The notes: generated from the sequence alone by a model not told the origin. A stretch of DNA of 64,000 nt from Actinomycetota bacterium (GCA_046048895.1 JBJOFF010000002.1:56668-120667); one strand, 5' to 3'; positions 21,838-35,650 are shown, counted from the first letter of the stretch. Translations and numbers: made by a program.

Positions 21838-22896
21838 ATGAGCGAATTTCAACATAAAGTCGATGCCATTCGCAATTTAATCAGAGAACGAAAGTTAGAT
21901 TCAATAGTAATCCGTAGAAATCCTAATTTGGCTTGGCTAATTTCCGGGCGCGTACATGTCCCGTTGACCTTAGATTTAGCCTGCTTTGACATGATTATTT
22001 CTTTGGAAAGAGTAGTAGCCGTAACTAATAAAATTGAAGCACCTAGATTAATTGCCGAAGAGTTGCCGGCAGAAGTTGAAGTAAATTCAGTTGATTGGTG
22101 GGAATCGCGAGATTCACAGTTGCCAATTGGAGATAAAGTTGGGTCAGATCAACCTGGAAATTCTCGAATTGATTTAGGTAGCGACATAGAGAGATTACGC
22201 CAATCTTTAAGTAAAACAGAGGTTGATCGATTTAGAGAAGTCTGCATTGACTCAGCTATCGCGCTTGGAGCAGCTGTAAAACTAACCAGGTCAAGCGATC
22301 GTGAAATTGATGTAACCAGCAGAATCGCTGAAGCGCTTTGGCAAAGTAATTTGGAATTAGTTTTTATAGGAGTCGCGGGGGAGGCCAGGGTGAAGCAATT
22401 TCGCCATCCACTTCCAACAGATTCGATAATTGGCAATCGAGTCGTAGCTTCTATCTGTGCTCGCCGTAAAGGAATGATTGCATCCGTTACCAGAATTGCA
22501 TCTTTTGAAGATGAAGTTAATTCCTATTTCAATATTTTGCAGGTGGAAGCCGCTATTTTTAATGCAACCAAAGTTGGATCAAATTTCTCGGTGCCAATAA
22601 ATGCGGCCATAAAGGCTTACCCAGAGTTTGGCTTTGACGAGCTAGAGTGGCAGAAACATCATCAAGGCGGCCCAACAGGTTTTGCTCCTAGGGATTGGCC
22701 TGCAAATAACCAAAGTCAGCAATTGATTTTGCAGGATCAACCTATTGCTTGGAACCCAACTGGTAACGGCTGGAAGGCGGAAGATACGATTTTGGCCACC
22801 GCAAACGGCGTAGATATTCTCTCCAAAGACCCAAGCTGGCCAACCATTGAAATTTCAGGCCGCAAGCGGCCCGATGTGTTGAAACTGCCAAAGTAA
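21838..22896 (+). CDS. M24 (creatinase/prolidase, pita-bread) fold protein with apparently degenerate metal site
   Basis: The layout looks like a creatinase-N-like N-terminal domain plus a pita-bread C-terminal domain (VASICARRKGMIASVTRI, HHQGGPTGFAPRD, GWKAEDTILAT). It starts 3 nt after the synthase stop. The canonical metal ligands look substituted (see findings). Confidence 0.6.
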   Translation: MSEFQHKVDAIRNLIRERKLDSIVIRRNPNLAWLISGRVHVPLTLDLACFDMIISLERVVAVTNKIEAPRLIAEELPAEVEVNSVDWWESRDSQLPIGDKVGSDQPGNSRIDLGSDIERLRQSLSKTEVDRFREVCIDSAIALGAAVKLTRSSDREIDVTSRIAEALWQSNLELVFIGVAGEARVKQFRHPLPTDSIIGNRVVASICARRKGMIASVTRIASFEDEVNSYFNILQVEAAIFNATKVGSNFSVPINAAIKAYPEFGFDELEWQKHHQGGPTGFAPRDWPANNQSQQLILQDQPIAWNPTGNGWKAEDTILATANGVDILSKDPSWPTIEISGRKRPDVLKLPK

Positions 22897-22934: not shown

Positions 22935-22963
22935 TTGACTACGGCCCCCCTTAGAGGCAGACT
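22935..22963 (+). promoter_or_regulatory. candidate sigma-70-type promoter of the isomerase-ABC-kinase-aldolase operon (TTGACT-N17-CAGACT)
   Basis: The hexamers were read from the sequence. The same -10-like AGACT plus downstream palindrome architecture recurs at 31215..31267. Confidence 0.4.
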
Positions 22964-22966
22964 GCG

Positions 22967-22986
22967 CCAAGAGGTCAAACCACTGG
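22967..22986. promoter_or_regulatory. palindromic operator copy 1 (CCAAGAGGTCAAACCACTGG), FadR/GntR-type GGT-N3-ACC core
   Basis: It lies 3 nt after the putative -10 and 8 nt before the ATG at 22994. It is near-identical to the sites at 31249..31267 and 31174..31192. Confidence 0.6.
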
Positions 22987-22993
22987 GGGTCTG

Positions 22994-24397
22994 ATGAAAT
23001 CTGTAGCGCTCTTGGCACTAGCTAGACCTACCTTTGACCTCGCTTATGCTGAGCGTAATTTTCAAGGCGCTCGCAAATTACTCCAAGATCTAGGTGTACA
23101 AGTGGTCGGACCAGAGCATCTAGTAATGACTCCGGAGGATGTACAAGCCGCCCAAATTCCAAGTGCAGATTTATATATTTTATTAACTGCATCTTTTAGC
23201 GATGCCTCGCCAGCGGTAGATCTGCTCTCAAATGTTCCAGGCCCAATTTTGGGTTGGTCTATGCGCGAACCTGGCGAAAACGGCGAGCGACTTAAATTAA
23301 ATTCAATGTGCGGCATAAATTTAGCAGCGCATGCACTTTTAGAAAATGGCCAGACACTTCGACATCTACACGGAAATTTTGATGAGCCAGAAATTAAGCA
23401 AGCGTTGTCGACGGCGCTTGCAGGTAATTTGCCTGCGGCAAATTCACCGATTGCTAAACATGATTTAGAAATGGCGTCAACTGAAGTTGTACAACATGCA
23501 CTTTCAATTTTGGCCAAGAAGAAAATTGGGGCAATTGGCGATGCGCCAAACGGTTTTACTCCTTGTAATTTTAATGCCCAGCAATTAAAAGATAATTTTG
23601 GATTAACTGTTGCTCAAATTCCAATTAAAAGTGCATTTGAGAAAATTGAGGCAGTAAGCCAAAGTGCAAAAGAAAAAGCACACGCAAATGCAGTCGCAGC
23701 TCAACCTTCGTTAGCCAATGTAAATGTTGATGAAGCAACCAAAGTAGCAGGTGTGGAAGTTGCATTAGAAAAATGGCAGGAAGATGAAGCGCTAGATGCG
23801 ATAGCAGTCAGATGCTGGCCAGAATTCCCTACCGATTTAGGAGCTTGCATCTGCTCATCTTTAGGTCGAATTTCAGATCGTGGCACAGTAACAACCTGCG
23901 AACGCGACGTACTTGGTGCGGTAACCATGTTGGTTTGTGAAGCGCTAGGTTCTGATGAAAATTACTTAGTAGATATTGTCGATCTTGATGCAAGTAAAAA
24001 TTTAGTTCGTTTATGGCACTGTGGCTCTGCCGCCACAAAATTAGCGGCAGATCCTCAAAATGCGACGCAATCGATTCATTGCAATCGGAAATTAGGCGTT
24101 GCCGGAGATTTCCCGCTCAAAACTGGTCCAGTAACCCTGTTCCGCATTGATCGGGATTTAGACCCAGCAAATAAAACTGGTCTAAGAATGGTTGTGAGCC
24201 GAGGGGAATCGATCCCAGCTCCCAATCGCTTTCAAGGAAATACTGCAACAGTTGTAACTGAACCTGATGCAGCACTTCTAGTGAATGGAATAGTCACCGG
24301 TGGATATCCGCACCATCTAGTCATCTCATGGGTAGATGTGCGACCAGGTATTCGTCGAATGGCGCAAATGTTAGGGATCCCCCTCATCGAATGGTAA
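22994..24397 (+). CDS. L-fucose/L-arabinose isomerase-family sugar isomerase (candidate sulfoquinovose-sulfofructose isomerase)
   Basis: A 467 aa protein that resembles the Fuc/Ara isomerase family overall (CWPEF, TTCERDVLGA, RLWHCGSA, GGYPHHLVISW). It is the first gene of the island operon. Confidence 0.65.
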   Translation: MKSVALLALARPTFDLAYAERNFQGARKLLQDLGVQVVGPEHLVMTPEDVQAAQIPSADLYILLTASFSDASPAVDLLSNVPGPILGWSMREPGENGERLKLNSMCGINLAAHALLENGQTLRHLHGNFDEPEIKQALSTALAGNLPAANSPIAKHDLEMASTEVVQHALSILAKKKIGAIGDAPNGFTPCNFNAQQLKDNFGLTVAQIPIKSAFEKIEAVSQSAKEKAHANAVAAQPSLANVNVDEATKVAGVEVALEKWQEDEALDAIAVRCWPEFPTDLGACICSSLGRISDRGTVTTCERDVLGAVTMLVCEALGSDENYLVDIVDLDASKNLVRLWHCGSAATKLAADPQNATQSIHCNRKLGVAGDFPLKTGPVTLFRIDRDLDPANKTGLRMVVSRGESIPAPNRFQGNTATVVTEPDAALLVNGIVTGGYPHHLVISWVDVRPGIRRMAQMLGIPLIEW

Positions 24398-24420
24398 CCA
24401 TCTCCAGAAAAGGAATATCA

Positions 24421-25851
24421 ATGAAGATAAAGACAATCCGTAAAGGCGTTGTTGCAGCGTTGGTAACAACGCTTGTGATGTCGTCATTTACATTAGCAAG
24501 AGCGGCTGAAGAGCCAGCACTTGGTAAGAAGTGCTCATCAGAGGGCATTAGTACAGGTACATCTACAAATTCACTTGTATGTACTCAAGTAGGAAATCAG
24601 CTGGTATGGAAGAGAGTCCGCCTTGGTGCGAACTACGGAACTCCAGTAGCTGCGCTTTCATCTCCAAAGGGAACAATTGAATTTCATCACTGGCGCCCAG
24701 AAGACAAAGCAGTATTTGCTGACATAATTGAAAAATTTGAAGCTACACATCCTGGTACCAAAATTAATCAGGTAATCATGAGCTCTGTTGATTACACCAA
24801 CTTAGCTTACGCAAAGATCAGCACCAATAAGAAAGCGGCAGTTTTTGTAACTAGCCGTGGTGGACAGTTTGATCAGTTCTATAAAGGCGGATTGCTAAAG
24901 GAATTTGTTGGACAGCGTTACATGAAGCAGAACGTAATTCAAAGCGCCCTTACACCAGCAACCGTTGGTGGAAAAGTTTATGGATTGCCATATCAATCAC
25001 TGTTTAACAATCCACTTTACAACGCTGAGATGTTCGCCAAGAATGGTTGGAAGGTTCCAACAACTTGGTCACAGACTCTTGCATTCTGCAAGACCGCAAA
25101 AGCAGCCGGAATTATTCCATTTGCATGGCCAGCAGCTACCCGAGGAAATGCGGGCCAGATTATCAATGCGTTCTTAATGAACTCAGATTCTTCATACGCT
25201 TCAATGGCAGCACATGTGGCTGCAGTTGATACCGGCAAGGAAGACCTTCAGACCGAGTGGTTCAAGTCAATTGCGAACAAGTACAAGCAAATGAATGACG
25301 CAGGTTGCTTCCCAGCAAATGTTTCTGGTTATAACGACACTGCAGCTCCGGCTGATTTCGCAGCTGGCAAAGCAGCTATCTATCCAACCGGATCATTCGG
25401 TATCAGCACTGTTACTAAATTGAATCCAGCAATGTCAGGAAAGATCAAAATGTTCGGAATGATCACAACTGACAGCAAGCCTCTATATGAAGGCATTACC
25501 AATAACACCTTCATTCTGCATGTAAATGCAAAGGCTTCAACCACAGATCAGAAGATTGCAAACTCATTTATCTCATGGCTAGCAACACCAGCTATGGCAC
25601 AGATTTATGCGGTTGGAACTTCACAGCATGTTTCAATCATTAACGTTGACTATTCGGACAATGTTGATCTTCTAAACGTTTCTGACATCATGGGTAAGAA
25701 GTTGTTACTTGCTCCACGCTTCTTGTTCGGCAATGTTAATGGCGTTCGTAATCCACTTGAGGACGCATTAATTGCGATTGGCGGTGGTGCAGACGTTTCA
25801 AAGACGTTAGCAGATACCTCAAAGACAATTAAGTCCAACTTGGGTGCTTAA
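24421..25851 (+). CDS. extracellular solute-binding protein, CUT1-type sugar ABC transporter
   Basis: The ATG at 24421 is preceded by AAAGGAA and gives a signal peptide MKIKTIRKGVVAALVTTLVMSSFTLARAA. The track start at 24328 overlaps the isomerase and was rejected. The body is SBP family 1-like (YPTGSFG etc.). Confidence 0.8.
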   Translation: MKIKTIRKGVVAALVTTLVMSSFTLARAAEEPALGKKCSSEGISTGTSTNSLVCTQVGNQLVWKRVRLGANYGTPVAALSSPKGTIEFHHWRPEDKAVFADIIEKFEATHPGTKINQVIMSSVDYTNLAYAKISTNKKAAVFVTSRGGQFDQFYKGGLLKEFVGQRYMKQNVIQSALTPATVGGKVYGLPYQSLFNNPLYNAEMFAKNGWKVPTTWSQTLAFCKTAKAAGIIPFAWPAATRGNAGQIINAFLMNSDSSYASMAAHVAAVDTGKEDLQTEWFKSIANKYKQMNDAGCFPANVSGYNDTAAPADFAAGKAAIYPTGSFGISTVTKLNPAMSGKIKMFGMITTDSKPLYEGITNNTFILHVNAKASTTDQKIANSFISWLATPAMAQIYAVGTSQHVSIINVDYSDNVDLLNVSDIMGKKLLLAPRFLFGNVNGVRNPLEDALIAIGGGADVSKTLADTSKTIKSNLGA

Positions 25852-25870
25852 TTAGCAATCTAACTAAGGC

Positions 25871-25908
25871 AAGCACCGCTCTTTCCAAATTTGGCAAGAG
25901 CGGTGCTT
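25871..25908 (+). promoter_or_regulatory. strong intercistronic hairpin after the SBP gene (13-bp perfect stem AAGCACCGCTCTT/AAGAGCGGTGCTT), no U-tract
   Basis: Read directly from the sequence. It lies 20 nt after the SBP stop and 48 nt before the permease ATG. Confidence 0.6.
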
Positions 25909-25955
25909 CGCCTACCCAAAAGAAGAAAAATCGAACAAACCCAACTTTAATTATT

Positions 25956-26801
25956 ATGTCGCTGCCAGCTTTGGCAGTTTATAGTTTTCTCTACCTCTAT
26001 CCGGCAATTCAAAATTTGCTTTACTCTCTAACTCGCTGGGATGGAGTTACTGAATCTGAATTTATTGGCGCGCGAAATTTCACCTACATGTTGACCGAAG
26101 ATGTACTTTTCAGAAAAATCTTTGCCAATAACATTAAATTTGCGCTATTTGTAGTCATCTTTCAGACCGGTTTTTCCTTACTTTTTGCGATTTTTCTAGC
26201 TAGAAATTCCAAATCAAATATCTTTTTCCGCACCTTATTTTTCTTCCCAACAATTCTCTCATCCGTTTCAGTTGGATTGATGTGGACCTTTTTATATAAC
26301 CCAAACTATGGATTCATAAATGCAGCCCTTAAAGGCATAGGTCTAGATTCTCTAGCTGTCAATTGGTTGGGCGATACCAGATATTCTTTATTAGCGATAG
26401 CGATCACTCAAGTCTGGTTTCATACCGGTCAGATGGTCGTCATATACGTAGCTGGGTTACAGCAAATCCCGCAGGAACTTTATGAAGCAGCAGATGTTGA
26501 TGGTGCAACCAAATGGCAGCAATTTAAAAATGTAACCTGGCCAATGGCGCTTCCTACAACTGCAGTCGTGGTCGCCTACACCACAATCCAATCCTTTAGA
26601 GCATTTGATTTGGTTTATTCAATGACTCAGGGTGGTCCTTTAAATTCATCAGACTTACTAGTGACAAATATTTTCAATTTGGCATTCGTAGGATATAAAT
26701 TTGGATATGCAGCAGCTCAGACTATTTTCCTCGTAGTAATGATTTTGTTATTGACGTGGCTCCAGCGCCGAACTCTTAAAATAGATTATGGAGTCAAGTA
26801 A
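25956..26801 (+). CDS. sugar ABC transporter permease (MalF/BPD_transp_1 type)
   Basis: A polytopic 281 aa protein with an EAA-loop region EAADVDGATKWQQFKNVTWP. Confidence 0.85.
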   Translation: MSLPALAVYSFLYLYPAIQNLLYSLTRWDGVTESEFIGARNFTYMLTEDVLFRKIFANNIKFALFVVIFQTGFSLLFAIFLARNSKSNIFFRTLFFFPTILSSVSVGLMWTFLYNPNYGFINAALKGIGLDSLAVNWLGDTRYSLLAIAITQVWFHTGQMVVIYVAGLQQIPQELYEAADVDGATKWQQFKNVTWPMALPTTAVVVAYTTIQSFRAFDLVYSMTQGGPLNSSDLLVTNIFNLAFVGYKFGYAAAQTIFLVVMILLLTWLQRRTLKIDYGVK

Positions 26802-27616
26802 TGATTTTTAGTATCTCCAGAAGAATTTTGCTGACAATATTTGCATTAGCGGTAATTGTGCCGACTTCAATCGTTGTTTTAGGCACATTCAAGACAGATT
26901 TTGAAATTTATTCAAAGCCTCTAGCTCTGCCAAAAGCTTTTACTTTGGATAATTTCAAGGCGTTGATAGACACTGGAAATGTTTCAACTCCTTTTAAAAA
27001 TTCAGTCATTGTGTCGTTGAGTTCGGTCTTCTTCACACTGTTATTTGCAAGTTTGGCTGCTTATGCAATTTCTAGAATGTTCACTATTACTGGAAAGGTC
27101 CTCTTCTTCTTGTTCTCCTTGGGATTAGCAATTCCAGGTCAAGTCAATATTGTGCCTATTTACACCCTATTTGTGAAGTTAAATTTGACCAATTCCTTAA
27201 TAGGACTTGTTTTAGTGAATATTGCTTTAAATTTACCGCTCTCCATTTTTATTCTCACTGCTTTCCTAAAGGATCTGCCAAAGGAGATGTTTGAAGTAGC
27301 AAGCATTGATGGTGCAGGTCATTGGCGAGTATTTCGCTCTATTGCCCTCCCTCTAGCAAGACCAGCTGTAGGCGCGACTGCTATATTTTTGTTTGTCATT
27401 TGTTGGAACGATCTCTTATATCCATTAATGCTGATAAATGAACAAAGCAAAAAAACTTTGCCACTTACCCTAATTGATTTCCGTGGAGAATTTTCTACCA
27501 GTTATTCAATGTTATTTACTGCAATTTTGGTAGCTTCAATACCAATGGTCGTTATGTATCTTTTGATGCAAAAGCAATTCCAATCAGGTTTGACAGCAGG
27601 TGCGGTTAAGGGATGA
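26801..27616 (+). CDS. sugar ABC transporter permease (MalG type)
   Basis: A polytopic 271 aa protein with the EAA loop EVASIDGAGHWRVFRSIALP. TAATG junction with the upstream permease. Confidence 0.85.
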   Translation: MIFSISRRILLTIFALAVIVPTSIVVLGTFKTDFEIYSKPLALPKAFTLDNFKALIDTGNVSTPFKNSVIVSLSSVFFTLLFASLAAYAISRMFTITGKVLFFLFSLGLAIPGQVNIVPIYTLFVKLNLTNSLIGLVLVNIALNLPLSIFILTAFLKDLPKEMFEVASIDGAGHWRVFRSIALPLARPAVGATAIFLFVICWNDLLYPLMLINEQSKKTLPLTLIDFRGEFSTSYSMLFTAILVASIPMVVMYLLMQKQFQSGLTAGAVKG

Positions 27617-28311
27617 GTACTACTATAAATTCAAGAGCAGATCGCATTGCCGATCAACTTCTCGAATTAATAAGTGTTTCTAAATTAAATCCAGGTGATC
27701 GATTACCTCCGGAACGTCAATTATCTGAACTTTTAGAGGTTAGCCGTCCTTCTTTGCGTGAAGCTTTACATATTCTTCAGGCAAGAGGATTGGTCGCAAT
27801 TAAACATGGACAGGGCACGTTTGTTGAAGAACCTTTGGTTGCTCAAGAATTAAGGGCTTCAGTCTTCTCAAGAGAGCATGATTTAAATGAACTTTATGAT
27901 GCCCGAGAAGTGCTTGAAGTGCCAGCCGCAAAGTGGGCTGCGCAGAAGGCTTCTAAAGAAGATATTAGAACTTTACGTGCAACTCTAAATCAGATGTCGG
28001 CTATTGCTGAGAGTAATGAAGTTGATTATGAGCAATTAAAATTTCTAGACGCTAAATTTCACTTAACAATCGTAGGGATAGCGGAAAATAGATTTATCAA
28101 TCAGACTTTGCACGTATTACAAGAGGTCATGGGTATGTCCATGGAAACTACACTTCGTCTACCAGGCCGTATTGAGATTTCAGCAAATGAGCATCTGGCA
28201 ATATTGGATGCTTTAGAACGTGGAGATGGAGAGCTGGCGGCGAAATTGACGCATGCTCATATTGCAGGTGCGCGTAAAACGGCACTAGCTGATGCGAAAG
28301 ATAAGCATTGA
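27613..28311 (+). CDS. GntR-family transcriptional regulator, FadR subfamily (FCD C-terminal domain)
   Basis: Winged-HTH block LPPERQLSELLEVSRPSLREALHILQARGLV followed by an all-helical C-terminal domain. ATGA overlap with the permease. Confidence 0.85.
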   Translation: MSTTINSRADRIADQLLELISVSKLNPGDRLPPERQLSELLEVSRPSLREALHILQARGLVAIKHGQGTFVEEPLVAQELRASVFSREHDLNELYDAREVLEVPAAKWAAQKASKEDIRTLRATLNQMSAIAESNEVDYEQLKFLDAKFHLTIVGIAENRFINQTLHVLQEVMGMSMETTLRLPGRIEISANEHLAILDALERGDGELAAKLTHAHIAGARKTALADAKDKH

Positions 28312-29195
28312 TTGAAGTAACTTGCGTAGGCGTAATTACGATGGACACGGTTGCGTTGGTGGATAAATATCCAAGCGCAGACGAAAGAGTATTAGCTGAG
28401 AAGATTGTTAGATCTGGAGGAGGTCCGGCTTCGGTAGCTGCAGTTGCGCTTTCAAGATTAGGAATTAAATCTGCAATTGTTGGAACTATCGGAGATGATC
28501 AAGATGGTCAAACCGTTTTAGAAATATTTAAAAAAGAAGGTGTAGATACTTCTGGTATCTCAATTCAAAAAGGTGCAACTTCTGGTAGCGTCATTGTGGC
28601 ATCCAAAAGCGAAAGCACCCGAGCAATTTCAACTCGCCAGCCAGTAAGCCAAGTAAAACCAAATGAAGCAGCCAAGAAATTGGCAGCTAACTCACAGTGG
28701 ATTCATGTCGACCATGTAGGAATCAATTTATTGCCTGACCTAGGAATCAGCAGGGGAGGCGCAGTAAAGATTTCTTTCGATGCTGGATATGGGGTAAAAG
28801 ATTTTGATGTTTCAAAGGTAGATTTATTTGCACCAAATGATAAGCAGATGCGAGAGCGCTATCCAGGTTTAGATTTAAAAGAGGCAATTAAGAGGGATGC
28901 TGAAGCTGGAAAAAATTTGGTGGTTGCCACGATGGGGGCAAATGGATCCATGGGTTACTCAACGGAGTTAGATTTTGCAGAAGCTCCAGTATTTAGAACG
29001 GAAATAATTAGCACCTTAGGCGCTGGAGATGTTTTTCATGGCGCGCTCCTTGCACAACTTATCGAAGGTCATCCACTTAAGGAAGCGTTAATGCGCGCTA
29101 ATGTAGTTGCAGCTCTCTCTTGCAGAGGCCTGGATGGCCAATCTGCGATTCCCACCAAAAATGACTTAATTAAGTACCTAGAAGGGGCTAAATAA
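28308..29195 (+). CDS. PfkB-family sugar kinase, YihV (sulfofructose kinase)-like
   Basis: VTCVGVITMD, GGGPASVAAVALSRLG and TLGAGDVFHGALLA...ALSCRGLDGQSAIP resemble my memory of E. coli YihV. TTGA overlap with the regulator gene. Confidence 0.7.
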   Translation: MIEVTCVGVITMDTVALVDKYPSADERVLAEKIVRSGGGPASVAAVALSRLGIKSAIVGTIGDDQDGQTVLEIFKKEGVDTSGISIQKGATSGSVIVASKSESTRAISTRQPVSQVKPNEAAKKLAANSQWIHVDHVGINLLPDLGISRGGAVKISFDAGYGVKDFDVSKVDLFAPNDKQMRERYPGLDLKEAIKRDAEAGKNLVVATMGANGSMGYSTELDFAEAPVFRTEIISTLGAGDVFHGALLAQLIEGHPLKEALMRANVVAALSCRGLDGQSAIPTKNDLIKYLEGAK

Positions 29196-30073
29196 TGCGT
29201 GATTTATCGAAACTGGCTCGATCATCTGGTGGTTTAGCAATGGTGGCAGTCGATCAACGCGAGGCGCTCCGAGGAATGTTTGCAGCGCATCATTCAACCG
29301 CAGTTCCAGATTCACAACTTACCCAATTCAAAGTTGATGTCGCGACAGAGTTAACGCCATTTGCATCAGCGCTACTAGTAGATCAAGAATTTGGAATTGA
29401 TGCCATTGTTGATCAGAAAGCAATGGCTAGCGGTTCAGGTTTGATCGCGGCAGCTGATTTATTAATTGGTCCAGCGGGCGGTGCAGCTACTGATACTGCG
29501 GTTGATCCGGAAGTAGATCCAGTGAGAATGAAATCAATCGGCGCAGCCGGGTTAAAGTTTTTAGTACTCTGGCGAAAAGATGAAAGCCCTGAATCAAGAT
29601 TGCAACTCGTAAATCAATTTAAGGCTTATTGTGACAGAGTTGATTTACCTTCAATTATTGAAATTATTGTAAAGGCTCCGAATAGTTCAGATATTCCTTT
29701 CGATAGAGAGGCGCAGATTATTGAGGCGGCTAAAGAAGCTCGCGCTTGGAAACCAGATCTCTACAAGGCCGAAGTACCTTTCCACGGTGAAGGAGATCTA
29801 AATCAGATTGAGAGAAATGCCGCGCTAATTTCTGAAGCTATCCAAGGTCCTTGGGTGGTACTTTCAAATGGAGTTAAGCAACCAAATTTTGCCGAAGCCG
29901 TGAAGGCGTGTTGCAAAGGTGGTGCTAGTGGTTTTCTTGCTGGGCGAGCGGTTTGGGCAGATATTGTTGGCGCAACAGATATTCCAAAAGCGCTTCGTGA
30001 AGTATCTATTCCTCGTCTAAAAGAGTTAACTGCAATTGTTGATGAATATGCCAAATCTTGGAGAAGTTGGTAG
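29195..30073 (+). CDS. class I aldolase of the LacD/YihT family, YihT (sulfofructose-1-phosphate aldolase)-like
   Basis: Blocks SGGLAMVAVDQREALRGMF, LKFLVLWRKDE, FDREAQIIEAAKEA, DLYKAEVP, PWVVLSNGV and GASGFLAGRAVWA closely match my recollection of YihT. LacD, as I recall it, has AFDQRGAL instead. TAATG junction with the kinase. Confidence 0.7.
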   Translation: MRDLSKLARSSGGLAMVAVDQREALRGMFAAHHSTAVPDSQLTQFKVDVATELTPFASALLVDQEFGIDAIVDQKAMASGSGLIAAADLLIGPAGGAATDTAVDPEVDPVRMKSIGAAGLKFLVLWRKDESPESRLQLVNQFKAYCDRVDLPSIIEIIVKAPNSSDIPFDREAQIIEAAKEARAWKPDLYKAEVPFHGEGDLNQIERNAALISEAIQGPWVVLSNGVKQPNFAEAVKACCKGGASGFLAGRAVWADIVGATDIPKALREVSIPRLKELTAIVDEYAKSWRSW

Positions 30074-31171
30074 TTAATTCATTTCAGCGATTGTTACAGG
30101 GCGACACTCTGCGATGCTCTTATGAGCAGCTAAGCCAGTAATTACGCTGGTTGCGCCATCTTTTAATGTTACTTCTGCAGGGGTTTTATTAAGTATTGCA
30201 TCCCGAAATTTAACGTGTTCGATGTATGAAGCACCGTAATGATGTCCTAGATATTTAACGGAAAGATCCATCACTTGCTTAACTTCACTGCCCCTGCCAG
30301 TTCCTTCACCTACGCCCCATCCAGAGCGTTTGCCCCAATCCTCTCTTCGGGAGTAGCGAACATTTAGCGAAGGCAAGAATGATTCCAGTTTTCCCTCATC
30401 GCCGACCACAGTGAGAATCTCTTTGTCATATGAACCTTCTGCAAACATACAGAGATCAAGCATTGCACGGATACCTCCGGCATATTCAAGAATTACATAT
30501 GCGTTATCCAACATATCTGCCTGTTGGCCATCATATTTCTCATCAAGATGGTTTACATTCTGACCGCCAGATGCAAAAACTCTGATTGGTTGGCTACCAA
30601 TAATTAAATCCATCAAATTAAAGTAATGACAGCATTTCTCTACCAGCGTGCCACCAGTTCGTTTTGCAAAGCGATTCCAATTGCCTACTTTTGGGTAGAA
30701 GGGTTCACGATGTTCGCGAATTGCAACTTGGTGCACTTTGCCAACAGCACCAGCTTTCGCCCGTTGAATTACTTCGTTAACTGGGGGCATAAAACGATAT
30801 TCAAGGCCCATCCATGTCAATGCACTTCTCTTTGATTCCCAATCAATAATTTTCTTGCAGTCTTCTACAGTGGTTGCCAAAGGCTTTTCTACGAAAACAG
30901 ATAAATTTGTAGCTAAGGCATCAGATAGAACGTCAACATGAGTGTCGTTAGGGGTTGCGATTACAACCGCATCAACCAAACCAGATTCTAAAAGTTGACG
31001 GTGATCTGTAAATTGCTTTGGGTTGCTGCCTGCCACGCTACTTGCCTGAGCGATGGAATTGGAATCAGGGTCTGCGATCGCAGTGATTGTGGCACCACCC
31101 ATAATCTTGATGTTTTCAATATGTTCGCGCCCCATGCTGCCTGCGCCGATAATTCCATAACGTAGGGTCAT
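30074..31171 (-). CDS. Gfo/Idh/MocA-family NAD(P)-dependent oxidoreductase (candidate NAD-dependent sulfoquinovosidase or sulfolactaldehyde-level dehydrogenase)
   Basis: Rossmann block YGIIGAGSMG, the EKPLA motif and GGTLVEKCCHYFNLMD. I prefer the ATG at 31171 (MTLRYGIIG) over the TTG at 31177 used by the track. Its stop directly abuts the aldolase stop. Confidence 0.75.
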   Translation of the reverse strand: MTLRYGIIGAGSMGREHIENIKIMGGATITAIADPDSNSIAQASSVAGSNPKQFTDHRQLLESGLVDAVVIATPNDTHVDVLSDALATNLSVFVEKPLATTVEDCKKIIDWESKRSALTWMGLEYRFMPPVNEVIQRAKAGAVGKVHQVAIREHREPFYPKVGNWNRFAKRTGGTLVEKCCHYFNLMDLIIGSQPIRVFASGGQNVNHLDEKYDGQQADMLDNAYVILEYAGGIRAMLDLCMFAEGSYDKEILTVVGDEGKLESFLPSLNVRYSRREDWGKRSGWGVGEGTGRGSEVKQVMDLSVKYLGHHYGASYIEHVKFRDAILNKTPAEVTLKDGATSVITGLAAHKSIAECRPVTIAEMN

Positions 31172-31173
31172 GG

Positions 31174-31192
31174 CCAAAGGTTAGACCACTTG
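31174..31192. promoter_or_regulatory. operator copy 2 (CCAAAGGTTAGACCACTTG)
   Basis: 16/19 identical to copy 3. It lies at the translation start of the minus-strand oxidoreductase gene. Confidence 0.5.
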
Positions 31193-31214
31193 CTAAATAA
31201 ATGGGAGAGAAGTC

Positions 31215-31244
31215 TTGAAATTAGGCGCAAGTTCCATTTAGACT
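31215..31244 (+). promoter_or_regulatory. candidate promoter of the suyAB-like operon (TTGAAA-N18-TAGACT)
   Basis: The hexamers were read from the sequence, and the operator follows 4 nt downstream. Confidence 0.45.
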
Positions 31245-31248
31245 GCGG

Positions 31249-31267
31249 CCAGAGGTCAGACCACTGG
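31249..31267. promoter_or_regulatory. operator copy 3 (CCAGAGGTCAGACCACTGG), 19-bp near-perfect palindrome
   Basis: The reverse complement is CCAGTGGTCTGACCTCTGG, so 16/19 positions are self-complementary. The conserved 28-nt block AGACTGCGsCCA(A)GAGGTCArACCACTGG is shared with 22959..22986. Confidence 0.65.
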
Positions 31268-31298
31268 ACCGAATTCTTATGAAAAGCGAGGAGCTCAT

Positions 31299-31598
31299 AT
31301 GGCTACACCTCCACAGTTCTTGCTCCATCACGATGGCGATAACGTCGCTGTTGCAATGGACGATTTAGAACCTGGAACCTTGCATGGTCTCTCAGTTAAA
31401 GAGGGCACTGCATATACTGAAATTCTTAACCATGCGATTCCGTTGGGACATAAATTTGCATTGACAGATATCCCTGAAGGCGGAGCAATTATCAAGTATG
31501 GAATCAAAGTTGGCCTTGCGTCGGCTGCAATTAAAAAAGGCGATTACATTCACACACACAACATGAGGAGTTATCGATGGGAAGCAAGCCGCGCTTAA
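31299..31598 (+). CDS. SAF-domain small subunit of a split UxaA-type lyase/dehydratase, SuyA-like
   Basis: A 99 aa protein with SAF/UxaA-N blocks GHKFALTDIPEGGAIIKYG and GDYIHTHNM. The SD GAGGAG lies 5 nt upstream. Confidence 0.7.
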   Translation: MATPPQFLLHHDGDNVAVAMDDLEPGTLHGLSVKEGTAYTEILNHAIPLGHKFALTDIPEGGAIIKYGIKVGLASAAIKKGDYIHTHNMRSYRWEASRA

Positions 31599-32743
31599 TG
31601 GGATACCGCCGACCAAACGGCACTATCGGTATCCGCAATCACGTAGTTATTTTGCCGCTTGATGATCTATCAAATGCGGCAGCTGAGGCTGTATCAAAAG
31701 TTATTCCAGGAACTCTTGCTTTGCCACATGCCTTTGGCAGATTGCAATTTGGTCAAGATTTAGAGTTGACTTTCAAAACTCTGATTGGCACTGGCATGAA
31801 TGCAAATGTTGCTGCTGTTATCGTTATTGGTATTGAACCAAAATGGACTAATCGTGTAGCAGAAGGTATTGCCAAATCTGGAAAGCCAGTTGCCGCTTTT
31901 TCAATTGAGGGCAAGGGTGATTTACAAACAATCACCGAAGCATCTCGTATGGCTGCAATGTTCTTGCAAGATGCATCAGGTCTTGAGCGTGAACAAGCCG
32001 AAATTGGTGAAATGATTATGTCTATCAAGTGTGGAGAATCAGATACCACCTCTGGACTTGGTTCATGCCCAACAACTTCAGAAGCTGTAGATCGCTGGGT
32101 AGAAGCTGGTGGCACTGTTTTCTTTGGTGAAACTTCCGAGTTAACCGGTGGAGAGCATTTAATTGCAGATCGCTGTATTGATGATGCATGTCGAATCGCA
32201 TTTCAAAATACTTACGATAAGTACATTGAAGTTATCGAATCTACCGGAGCAAATCTGCTTGGTTCGCAGCCTACCCAAGGCAATATCGCTGGTGGCTTGA
32301 CTACCATTGAGGAGAAAGCGCTAGGAAACATCGCTAAGACAGGCTCTGTTCCAGTTGTGGGCGTTTTGGATTATGCAGAGCAGCCAGACCCGAATAAAAA
32401 AGGTCTTTACTTCATGAACTCATCTTCAGCCGCCGCCGAGTGTGTAACTCTGATGGCAGCTGGCGGAGCGGTGATTCACTTGTTCCCGACCGGACAAGGC
32501 AACGTAATCGGTAATCCAATTGTTCCGGTACTTAAGTTGACAGCAAATAAAAAGACTGCAGCTAGCATGAAAGAACATATCGATTTAGATGTTTCTGGTT
32601 TACTTCGTTATGAATACGATCTTAAAAAAGCGGGCGACATGATGATGGATGTAATTTACAAAACTGTAAATGGTCGTCTTTGTGCAGCAGAAGTTACAGG
32701 TCACCGCGAATTTACTTTCACAAAGCTTTATATCAGCGCGTGA
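31577..32743 (+). CDS. UxaA C-terminal-type large subunit, SuyB-like (candidate (R)-sulfolactate sulfo-lyase)
   Basis: A 388 aa protein with blocks GIRNHVVILP, KCGESDTTSGL, GETSELTGGEH, GGLTTIEEKALGN and HLFPTGQGN. An internal GAGGAG SD precedes the ATG, and it overlaps the small subunit gene by 22 nt. Confidence 0.7.
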   Translation: MGSKPRLMGYRRPNGTIGIRNHVVILPLDDLSNAAAEAVSKVIPGTLALPHAFGRLQFGQDLELTFKTLIGTGMNANVAAVIVIGIEPKWTNRVAEGIAKSGKPVAAFSIEGKGDLQTITEASRMAAMFLQDASGLEREQAEIGEMIMSIKCGESDTTSGLGSCPTTSEAVDRWVEAGGTVFFGETSELTGGEHLIADRCIDDACRIAFQNTYDKYIEVIESTGANLLGSQPTQGNIAGGLTTIEEKALGNIAKTGSVPVVGVLDYAEQPDPNKKGLYFMNSSSAAAECVTLMAAGGAVIHLFPTGQGNVIGNPIVPVLKLTANKKTAASMKEHIDLDVSGLLRYEYDLKKAGDMMMDVIYKTVNGRLCAAEVTGHREFTFTKLYISA

Positions 32744-33666
32744 TTTTAATTTCCGAAGATGTTTGGGGTGCGCCGTTTGAAGAGTTATCTAAACGGCGCT
32801 CCATTCATCAAGATACAGACCTTTGGCAAGATGCAAGTAAATTAAAAGAGTCCGTCAAAGAAGCTCAAGTTTTAGTAGTTAGAAATAGAACCAAAGTAAC
32901 TGCTGATGTAATCGCAGCTGCACCAAAGTTAAAGGTTATTGCTCGCGCAGGAGTAGGTCTAGATAATATAGATCTTGAAGCTGCGGATAGCGCTGGCGTG
33001 ATAGTAGTTGCGGGTTTAGGTGCAAACGCAATTTCAGTGGCTGAGATGACTTTGGGATTAGCTTTGGCTTTGAGCAGAGATATCGCAGCTCAAGATCAAA
33101 TCACAAAGTCTGGCAATTGGAATAGAACACCTGGTGTAGAAATCACCGGGAAGACTTGGGGTTTACTGGGATGTGGTGCAACCGGACGGGCTACTGCAAA
33201 CCTACTTAAAGGATTTAACTGTAAGGTGCTGGGTTTTGACCCCTTTTTTCAGGGAAATGCAGAAATTCAAATGGGTACTTGGGATGAAGTTGTTAGCAAA
33301 TCAGATTTTATCAGCGTTCATATGCCTGCAACTAGCCAAACCATCGGATCAATTAATCAAGAGTTCTTTACCAAAATGAAGTCAACTGCATTTTTGATAA
33401 ATGTGGGAAGAGGTGAGTTGGTAAACGAGGCTGATTTAATTGAAGCGCTTAAAGCAAAAACTATAGCTGGTGCAGCACTAGATGTAAGAACAACTGAGCC
33501 GCCTTTAAAAGGAGAATTAGAGCAAATTCAAAATTTGATTTTGACTCCGCATATTGCAGGCATCACCAAAGAATCACAATTAGCAATTAATCAAATATTG
33601 GTCAATAACATCGATTTGGTTTTAGATGGTAAAAAAGCAACTCATGCGGTTGGTAAAGTCTCGTGA
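32740..33666 (+). CDS. D-isomer-specific 2-hydroxyacid dehydrogenase (phosphoglycerate dehydrogenase-like)
   Basis: I place the start at GTG 32740 (GTGA overlap with the upstream stop), giving [10 protein letters not shown]. The track start at 32680 lies inside the upstream gene. NAD motif [11 protein letters not shown] and catalytic-region block TPHIAG. Confidence 0.8.
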
Positions 33667-34664
33667 CAAAATTAAAATTTGAAACAGCAGTTTTACAAGC
33701 TTCTGATTTACTGCAAGCTGCCGGAATGCCTAAAGAAGAAGCTGACATTTCGGCAAATTGCATTGTGGCTAGCGATGTTTGGGGAATCGGAAGCCACGGA
33801 CTAATGCGCTTGCCCTTTTATTTAGAAAGACTCGTAGCTGGCGGCATTAATCCAAAGGCAAAATTAAAAGAGATTACTAATCTGCCATCGTTACGAATTT
33901 TTGATGGCGAAACCGGAATGGGCCATTGGCAATTAAAAAAGGCTGCAGAAGTTGCAGCTAATTTAGCGGATTCGCAAGGGATTGCAGCAGTTGGCGTTGG
34001 TCGATCAAATCACTGTGGCGCATTGGGACTATATGTATGGCCGATGTTGCAAAAGAATTTGGTAGGCATCGTTTTCAGTAATGGGCCTGCGGTGATGCCA
34101 CCTTGGGGTGGAAATAAACCAATGCTCTCAACTTCACCAATTGCAGCAGGCATTCCTGGGAAAAATCACACGGTTATTGATTTAGCTACTAGCGCAGTAG
34201 CGCGTGGAAAAATCGCCGCTAAAGCGCAGAAAGGTGAAGCTTTAGAACCTGGCTGGGCCTTTGATCAAAATGGTCTACCAACTTTAGATGCCAAAAGCGC
34301 ATTAAATGGAATGCTTGCACCACTTGGTGGAGTTAAAGGTTACGCACTAGCGGTTTTAGTTGAGTCATTAACTGGTGCATTAGTTGGACCAAATTTGGCA
34401 GCCGATGTTCCGGATATGTTTGATAATAATATGGCTAAGTTGCCGCAAGATATTTCGCATTTTGTGATTGCAATTAAAGCTGAAGCTCTAACTGTAGATG
34501 GCCATAACCGTATGGAAGAATTTTCAACGAGGGTAGATGAAGCCGGCGGTCGAATGCCAGGGAAAAATCGAGTGAATCCATTCGAAATATCAGCAGGCAC
34601 AGAATTTGATATTGCAGACTCAGTCTCTGCAGAACTTTCCAATTGGAGTTCAAAATTATTATAA
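33663..34664 (+). CDS. Ldh_2 (malate/L-lactate/ComC sulfolactate dehydrogenase) family oxidoreductase
   Basis: Blocks GIGSHGLMRLP, RSNHCGALG, LSTSPIAAGIP, DLATSAVARGKI and GGVKGYALA. GTGA junction with the upstream gene. Confidence 0.8.
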   Translation: MTKLKFETAVLQASDLLQAAGMPKEEADISANCIVASDVWGIGSHGLMRLPFYLERLVAGGINPKAKLKEITNLPSLRIFDGETGMGHWQLKKAAEVAANLADSQGIAAVGVGRSNHCGALGLYVWPMLQKNLVGIVFSNGPAVMPPWGGNKPMLSTSPIAAGIPGKNHTVIDLATSAVARGKIAAKAQKGEALEPGWAFDQNGLPTLDAKSALNGMLAPLGGVKGYALAVLVESLTGALVGPNLAADVPDMFDNNMAKLPQDISHFVIAIKAEALTVDGHNRMEEFSTRVDEAGGRMPGKNRVNPFEISAGTEFDIADSVSAELSNWSSKLL

Positions 34665-35650
34665 CCAGAAATTTTCCTGGGCTAGCGCTGATTGCTGGCT
34701 TTGTTGCAATTGCATTTCAAGTAAATAGCTATCAACCTGCCGTAAGTCCATTAGCTCTCTGTGTTTTATTTGGATTCCTGGCATCAAACTTAGCAAGTTG
34801 GCCTAATTGGGCTGAGTCTGGAACAAAACTTGCAAGTAAACGAATAATGCGAATCGGCGTTGCATTGCTTGGTTTTCAACTTAGTGTTGAAGCTCTCCAG
34901 CAGATTGGCTTAAAAGGAGTTTTGACGGTACTTGCAGTAGTTATCTTTACCATTTTTGGAATTTTGTTTCTCTCCAAATTATTTGGCATGACTGGTGATT
35001 TAGGTTTACTAATCGGAGTTGGTTTCGGAGTCTGTGGTGCAACTGCAGTAGCGGCGATTCGGCCACAAACAAAGGCAACACAAGAAGAAACTTCTTATGC
35101 CATCGCATTGATTTCGCTTTGTGGCACTTTATCTATTGTGGTGCTCCCATTAATTGGGCACGTACTCAATCTATCGACACAAACTTTTGGCGCATGGGCT
35201 GGCGCTGCCGTGCATGATGTGGGTCAAGTTATTGCTACTGCATCCGTATGGGATCAAGATGCAATTGCTGCAGCGATTGTGGTCAAGTTAGCGCGAGTAA
35301 GCATGCTAGCCCCAATAGTTTTAATACTTTCAATTAGACATAGAAAGTATTTAAGAAGTATCAATAAAAGCGAAGAAAAAAGTGAAAAAGTTCCATTAAT
35401 TCCATTTTTTGTAATTGGTTTTATTGCAGTAGCTGTCTTTCACAATACGGTTGATATACCAACAGGTACAACGGCAAATTTTGTTTTGTTATCCAAATGG
35501 TTGCTTGGTGCGGGCTTAGTAGCCCTTGGTGCAAATGTTAAATGGAATAACATTAAAAAAATTGGCGCTAAACCAATGTTAATGGGAATGCTCGCATGGC
35601 TAATTGTTGCTGGTGTAGCACTCTTTGCAGTTAACTTAACTGGGATTTAG
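34643..35650 (+). CDS. YeiH/UPF0324 putative sulfate/sulfite exporter (PSE) family membrane protein, SuyZ-like
   Basis: A polytopic 335 aa protein with blocks GVGFGVCGATAVAA and AVHDVGQV. It overlaps the upstream gene by 22 nt (TTG start). Confidence 0.7.
   Translation: MEFKIIITRNFPGLALIAGFVAIAFQVNSYQPAVSPLALCVLFGFLASNLASWPNWAESGTKLASKRIMRIGVALLGFQLSVEALQQIGLKGVLTVLAVVIFTIFGILFLSKLFGMTGDLGLLIGVGFGVCGATAVAAIRPQTKATQEETSYAIALISLCGTLSIVVLPLIGHVLNLSTQTFGAWAGAAVHDVGQVIATASVWDQDAIAAAIVVKLARVSMLAPIVLILSIRHRKYLRSINKSEEKSEKVPLIPFFVIGFIAVAVFHNTVDIPTGTTANFVLLSKWLLGAGLVALGANVKWNNIKKIGAKPMLMGMLAWLIVAGVALFAVNLTGI

Follow-up and report, generated by a model that had tools for sequence, protein, structure and literature searches.

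A divergent candidate sulfoquinovose isomerase of the SftI/SqvD family in a hybrid sulfoglycolytic island of an actinobacterium

In a 64-kb stretch of DNA from an Actinomycetota bacterium (hereafter, the window), the gene at 22994-24397 very probably encodes an isomerase that converts sulfoquinovose (SQ) to 6-deoxy-6-sulfofructose (SF); its product is a divergent protein of the SftI/SqvD type. The family membership, metal ligands, neighbors, operator and synteny of this gene, all of which could be observed directly, point to SQ as the substrate, to a metal-dependent enzyme and to this reaction. The enzyme type is known, and the hybrid pathway in which the gene is found is of a published kind. 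What is new is modest: a distinct actinobacterial clade lying under the Pfam threshold and its occurrence in Nanopelagicaceae. The locus is composed of the following features:

21838-22896, + strand: divergent M24/creatinase-fold protein, 352 aa (AlphaFold2 (AF2) model and fold match)
22970-22986, + strand: operator copy 1, ending 8 nt 5' of the isomerase start codon
22994-24397, + strand: candidate sulfoquinovose isomerase of the SqvD/SftI family, with a FucI/AraA-type fold, metal-dependent (NF048012 profile, AF2 fold and ligand alignment)
24328-25851, + strand: CUT1 solute-binding protein, SBP (SBP_bac_1, 2.6e-18; syntenic in IMCC26103)
25956-26801 and 26801-27616, + strand: two ABC permeases (BPD_transp_1)
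27613-28311, + strand: GntR/FCD regulator (GntR and FCD domains)
28308-29195, + strand: candidate YihV-type (PfkB) sulfofructose kinase (best PDB match 7ag6)
29195-30073, + strand: YihT-type class I sulfofructose-1-phosphate aldolase (best PDB matches 7ag1/7ag7)
30074-31177, - strand: SqgA (GH188), NAD+-dependent sulfoquinovosidase, Gfo/Idh/MocA, convergent (best PDB matches 8qc2 and 8qc3)
31176-31192 and 31251-31267, no strand assigned: operator copies 2 and 3, between sqgA and suyA (pattern search)
31299-35650, + strand: SuyA/SuyB-like lyase, D-2-hydroxyacid dehydrogenase, ComC-like (Ldh_2) dehydrogenase and YeiH-type exporter (Pfam and NCBIfam)

The frame at 22994-24397 is open over 467 aa and starts with an ATG located 8 nt past a GGGGG stretch. 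The original prediction, made from the DNA sequence, had described a protein of this length carrying three isomerase motifs, and all three were located: TTCERD at residues 300-305, RLWHCGSA at residues 339-346 and GGYPHH at residues 436-441. A chance open reading frame is ruled out, because 1337 homologues were retrieved at E ≤ 1e-5, many of them 72-99% identical. Four lake-water studies yielded RNA-library contigs that match positions 22942-23093 and 24120-24443 with 0-1 differences and cover the operon in parts only; they are weakly consistent with expression of the isomerase, DNA carry-over being possible.

The sole NCBIfam match of the protein is NF048012, "sulfoquinovose isomerase SftI" (275.5 bits, E 7e-82). 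The alignment runs end to end, with residues 2-463 placed on profile positions 2-439 of 443, and the score lies below the equivalog cut-off of 700 bits. This cut-off is narrow, since a homologue from Tepidibacillus marianensis, which is encoded in a canonical sulfo-TAL locus (isomerase, transaldolase, sulfolactaldehyde (SLA) reductase-like gene, GH31 and DUF4867), also falls under it with 577 bits. The window isomerase is 31% (phmmer) or 29% (tblastn) identical to this homologue. Proteins above the cut-off (712-820 bits) were found in 5 of 401 Bacilli genomes; with these five taken as proxies for the biochemically characterized SftI enzymes, the identity of the window isomerase to them is 27-32% over residues 3-467. 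At about 30% identity to proven SftI enzymes, the substrate specificity of an isomerase can change.

The original prediction had also placed the protein among the fucose and arabinose isomerases and proposed a profile search as a check. At the Pfam level, support for this kinship is weak: Fucose_iso_C (PF02952) is the only match, over residues 341-465, at 29.0 bits where the gathering score is 29.3. By fold, however, the kinship is clear. The AF2 model of the isomerase, built with 47 homologues, reached a pLDDT of 96.5 and a pTM of 0.95, and all 41 significant Foldseek matches in the PDB were L-arabinose, L-fucose or D-arabinose isomerases, among them AraA 4f2d (1e-24) and FucI 1fui (6e-19).

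In profile alignments, E303, D327 (one column off), H342 and H441 of the isomerase align with E306, E333, H350 and H450 of Escherichia coli AraA, and E303, D327 and H440/H441 align with E337, D361 and H528 of FucI, the metal ligands of these two enzymes. E303, D327, H342 and H441 are invariant or nearly so (at least 90%) across 129 family members from all clades. The window clade and the SftI clade also have in common several motifs that are absent from AraA and FucI, namely W88..E92, R99-L-x-L-N103, C274-W-P, W341-H-C-G and N364-R365. For SqvD, the Mn ligands have been described as conserved (PMC9594981). The conserved residues R11, R99, R365 and R384 may be involved in recognizing the sulfonate group. 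No SqvD/SftI structure was found in the PDB, either by fold (Foldseek) or by sequence (no match even at E ≤ 1), so the isomerase would lend itself well to a first crystal structure of the SqvD family. The suggestion that the protein is a new representative of a poorly characterized family was thus borne out.

As had been predicted, the isomerase is the first gene of the kinase/aldolase operon: it heads seven co-directional, closely packed genes, in the order isomerase, SBP, two permeases, GntR/FCD regulator, PfkB kinase and DeoC/LacD-type aldolase. The SBP frame, as listed, overlaps the 3' end of the isomerase gene by 70 nt (24328-24397); the true SBP start is probably an internal codon located 3' of the isomerase stop, because the SBP of strain IMCC26103 begins 42 nt past the isomerase stop. 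The SBP and permease genes are separated by 104 nt, and this interval contains a hairpin (25871-25908) made of 19-nt arms, 95% complementary, with no spacer.

The neighbors of the isomerase are clearly sulfoquinovose genes and leave little doubt on the substrate. The best PDB match of the kinase is the sulfofructose kinase YihV (7ag6, 6.6e-25), with a small lead over other PfkB kinases. The aldolase matches the sulfofructose-1-phosphate (SFP) aldolases 7ag1/7ag7 (YihT) with 1.6e-70, compared with 1e-19 for tagatose-bisphosphate aldolases. The product of the convergent sqgA gene matches 8qc2 (FlSqgA, 1e-108) and 8qc3 (ArSqgA, 5e-106), two PDB codes confirmed as SqgA in the literature (PMC10755693). 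The genes at 31299-35650, judged by their domains, would form a sulfolactate racemization and desulfonation module. This SuyAB module is syntenic in IMCC26103 and in other acI genomes, and the complete genome of IMCC26103, a cultured acI strain, shows synteny over the whole island, with an identical arrangement of 14 genes.

An operator-like palindrome of 17 nt with a GGTCnnACC core, AGAGGTCARACCACTGG, is found at three sites in the window, all of them in the island. The copies were identified by a pattern search, a repeat search with a 10-nt seed having missed them, and this search gave 4 matches when both strands of the 64 kb were counted, where chance would give 0.15. One copy precedes the isomerase gene, another overlaps the sqgA start and the third is located 5' of suyA. 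Through these copies, the isomerase operon would be joined with sqgA and the suyAB operon in one putative GntR/FCD regulon, and we infer that the GntR/FCD regulator is the likely binder of the shared operator. When the search was extended to the whole genome, three weak extra matches were obtained, none of them near aldehyde dehydrogenase genes.

The genome available for searching comprises 1.28 Mb in 41 contigs and is 88.7% complete. The original prediction had noted the lack of a YihS-type gene in the island, and this observation extends to the genome as a whole, as PF07221 (YihS) has no match in the isomerase or anywhere in these 1.28 Mb. YihS is probably absent from the organism, an absence that is probable rather than proven because of the 88.7% completeness. 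GH31 and a second FucI-like gene are likewise missing from the genome, in which the isomerase is the only Fucose_iso_C match. SqvB (DUF4867, PF16161) also gave no match in the genome, a weak result given that the control search gave no match anywhere; moreover, the SqvB partner is an association of the SftI/SqvD family and not a strict requirement. There is no YihR mutarotase gene in the cluster. The island (22994-35650) also contains no sulfolactaldehyde dehydrogenase, though the steps before and after are present. At least seven full-length aldehyde dehydrogenase genes are located elsewhere in the genome, none of them marked by the operator, and the best SLA dehydrogenase candidate among them (G000:C8:29918-31291) is 36-38% identical to cluster-linked enzymes of two other Actinomycetes.

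In the route that we propose, SqgA would release SQ from imported SQ glycosides, and the isomerase would convert SQ to SF via a metal-coordinated ene-diol intermediate. The PfkB kinase would phosphorylate SF to SF-1-phosphate, which the YihT-type aldolase would cleave into DHAP and sulfolactaldehyde. The latter would be oxidized by an aldehyde dehydrogenase encoded elsewhere, and the adjacent SuyAB/dehydrogenase module would lead to pyruvate and sulfite. The central claim of the original prediction, that the isomerase fills the SQ-to-SF slot in place of YihS, is upheld by the SftI homology, the metal ligands, the SQ-specific neighbors and the common operator.

The fold and ligands of the protein are of the FucI/AraA type and its score lies under the SftI equivalog cut-off, as might be found for an enzyme acting on another sugar (e.g., L-fucose, D-arabinose or another deoxy-hexose taken up via the ABC system) in a mixed-substrate island. 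The context of one more distant family member, P0160, would also suit such an enzyme: its neighbors are a xylose-isomerase-like TIM-barrel gene and an SBP, and its short contig shows no recognizable SQ marker. We nevertheless consider this very improbable, as the isomerase lacks the N-terminal domains and the length of FucI (467 vs 591 aa; 13-14% identity), and neither a kinase or aldolase for fuculose or ribulose nor any fuc gene is located nearby. Instead, the kinase and aldolase of the operon best match YihV and YihT, the glycosidase is an SqgA orthologue, the operator joins the operon to sqgA and suyAB, and SQ-type neighbors were found for every near relative examined.

The protein could also be a sulfosugar enzyme working at a different step; for example, its substrate could be an SQ derivative carrying a phosphate or a glycosidic group, or its main activity could be the interconversion of glucose-6-phosphate and fructose-6-phosphate. 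This would be in keeping with the finding that the SftI of Bacillus aryabhattai also interconverts F6P and G6P (PMC7491151), with the divergence of the clade and with the presence of an M24-fold companion in every cluster examined. It is improbable all the same: the PfkB kinase and the YihT aldolase depend on free SF and SFP, neither the cluster nor the genome offers another candidate isomerase, and the protein shares its catalytic and family signature residues with the SftI clade. That the protein has decayed or lost catalysis and is retained for some other function is scarcely credible, given that all metal and signature residues are kept and that the gene is 72-99% conserved, with intact frames, across many acI genomes. 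An SQ-to-SF isomerase is the reading that we prefer.

The relatives of this proposed SQ isomerase were then placed by identity, gene context and phylogeny. With our library clustered at 50% identity, just three clusters are at least 40% identical to the isomerase, each of them beside DeoC, PfkB and/or Gfo/Idh/MocA genes. Among 400 other Actinomycetota genomes sampled, two Actinomycetes genomes (7.1 and 4.1 Mb) encode isomerases 52-53% identical to that of the window, and the gene order of both clusters is M24-like gene, GH31, ABC importer, isomerase, PfkB, YihT and aldehyde dehydrogenase, with DeoR between the isomerase and PfkB in one of the two. The neighbors of the nearest relatives (40-53% identity) are PfkB, DeoC, Gfo/Idh/MocA, GH31 and aldehyde dehydrogenase genes.

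In a quick maximum-likelihood tree, the isomerase, its 52-53% relatives and the three clusters form one clade (SH-aLRT 99), which is separate from the clade of the sulfo-TAL-linked SftI homologues. The placement of FucI in this tree was ignored as a long-branch artefact. SQ contexts are also found in a larger neighboring clade: one of its members is located beside SqgA, a YihT-like gene and PfkB, and another belongs to a cluster of SuyAB/Ldh_2, GntR, PfkB, DeoC, isomerase, TRAP and Gfo genes. The fusion of a hybrid sulfo-EMP pathway with SuyAB is not unique to acI, since an ENA contig of 3.18 Mb from an unrelated lineage (L065) carries the same functional set, that is, a 33%-identical isomerase with SuyAB, two 2-hydroxyacid dehydrogenases, Ldh_2, GntR, PfkB, DeoC and Gfo/Idh/MocA; there, a TRAP transporter takes the place of the ABC system.

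The names of the homologues assign the family of the window to the acI lineage (Nanopelagicaceae), a dominant group of the freshwater bacterioplankton. The isomerase was found in 51 of 201 sampled species genomes of this family, spread over 9 of 18 genera, and in 25 genomes of this sample a YihT homologue shares a contig with the isomerase, at a distance of up to ~7 kb. The pathway logic around the isomerase is not uniform, because the clusters of one acI genus, g18, keep the isomerase and the kinase without a YihT aldolase; in this genus, 16 of 19 genomes encode the isomerase and 1 of 19 encodes YihT. In the g18 islands (L077, G047:C2, 14624-15807; L078, G034:C3), the PfkB kinase gene is followed directly by suyA, with no YihT aldolase gene, and the islands are otherwise syntenic.

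Upstream of the operon, the protein encoded at 21838-22896 has no Pfam match, and its AF2 model (pLDDT 88.5) shows a prolidase/creatinase fold (TM 0.70-0.75). Six related loci were examined in genomes of the Nanopelagicaceae family and other Actinomycetes, and each has this M24-like gene in or beside the cluster, with copies at L077:6945-8018, L079:6868-7926, L058:2663-3724(-) and L059:16298-17365. The gene is co-inherited with the isomerase clade and always adjoins either the sulfoquinovosidase gene or the isomerase gene. In the acI genera g18 and g8 it is a neighbor of SqgA, and in the two large Actinomycetes it immediately follows GH31. No copy was seen close to the more distant isomerase-family members examined. 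An alignment of the M24-like proteins (A3) revealed the invariant blocks RHPLPT, CxRRxGxxASVTR, HHQGG and KxEDT.

The position after GH31 is the one held by DUF4867/SqvB in the Firmicutes sulfo-TAL cluster, and since the M24-like gene occupies it in the two Actinomycetes, its product could be a mutarotase or take part in a substrate-preparing step. The metal-less M24 protein that accompanies this separate actinobacterial isomerase subfamily might act as a new, non-homologous SQ mutarotase or at another step of substrate preparation, a scenario that we mention as a speculation and regard as unlikely. The structure prediction of a complex between the isomerase and the M24-like protein scored 0.00, which gives no verdict and counts neither for nor against it.

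Many homologues of the isomerase clade have no precomputed Pfam domain. Because the clade lies just under the Pfam threshold and is ~30% identical to verified SftI, these genomes would probably be given an incomplete pathway in surveys that use PF02952, or BLAST with verified queries and an identity limit of 40% or more (as in PMC13436972). The gene marks a complete-looking route from SQ glycosides to pyruvate and sulfite in about a quarter of the sampled acI genomes. In the literature searched, we found no paper linking Nanopelagicaceae (acI) to sulfoquinovose and no assay or structure of the actinobacterial isomerase clade. The interest of the locus lies in the lineage, in a clade invisible to threshold-based surveys and in the M24-fold companion, and not in the isomerase itself.

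The sulfo-TAL, TK and EMP2 pathways have been known to use the FucI-like SqvD/SftI as their isomerase since 2020, when the SftI of B. aryabhattai was shown to convert SQ to SF in vitro (PMC7491151). The original prediction had offered a new recruitment of the fold as one possibility; this was wrong, because SqvD/SftI was already known and hybrid SqvD, YihV and YihT clusters have been published (PMC10665668). The nearest known counterparts are the SftI/SqvD enzymes (NF048012, PF02952) of Bacillus aryabhattai SOS1, B. megaterium DSM 1804, B. urumqiensis and Clostridium sp. MSTE9. The window isomerase resembles these enzymes in its fold, its size (~440-470 aa for the family), the absence of the FucI N-terminal domains, its metal ligands, its motifs and its slot in an SQ cluster (PMC7491151, PMC9594981), and it matches the family profile over its full length. 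It differs from them by its low identity to the Bacilli SftI proxies (27-32%) and by belonging to a separate, well-supported actinobacterial clade. It is also paired with YihV/YihT-type enzymes and SqgA, whereas SftI/SqvD are paired with a transaldolase, a transketolase or SqiK/SqiA. Unlike the SftI clusters, the window has no DUF4867 (SqvB) gene, and a metal-less M24-fold gene is found in the corresponding position.

The E. coli FucI and AraA enzymes have the same fold and metal site but share only 12-15% identity with the window isomerase, stand in other operon contexts and lack the SftI-family motifs. FucI is a 591-aa protein with extra N-terminal domains, whereas the 467-aa window protein matches the C-terminal domain only, and below threshold, which places it outside FucI proper. 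The E. coli YihS (PF07221) catalyzes the same reaction and occupies the same slot, but it is an unrelated (alpha/alpha)6-barrel, is metal-independent and also makes sulforhamnose.

Among the hybrid systems, SqvD stands in place of YihS in a Yersiniaceae cluster (PMC9594981), and Sharma et al. (2023) described Pfam combinations of a hybrid sulfo-EMP1/2 type in both Proteobacteria and Actinobacteria, with PF02952, PF00294 and a PF01791 class I aldolase in one locus (PMC10665668). The same combination is found here, PF02952 being 0.3 bits under its gathering score, and the clusters of the two large Actinomycetes (GH31, PfkB, YihT and aldehyde dehydrogenase with the 52-53% isomerases) also fit this mosaic. 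Compared with those hybrids, the acI version has SqgA for GH31, GntR/FCD for DeoR, no in-cluster SLA dehydrogenase and a SuyAB module under the same operator. The modified sulfo-EMP pathway of Arthrobacter sp. AK01 and AK04 (PMC8873060, PMC10755693) is alike in its YihV, YihT, SqgA and ABC importer and in having neither GH31 nor a mutarotase gene. However, Arthrobacter uses a YihS isomerase and an in-cluster GabD-type SLA dehydrogenase and excretes sulfolactate, whereas the window combines an SqvD-type isomerase with SuyAB.
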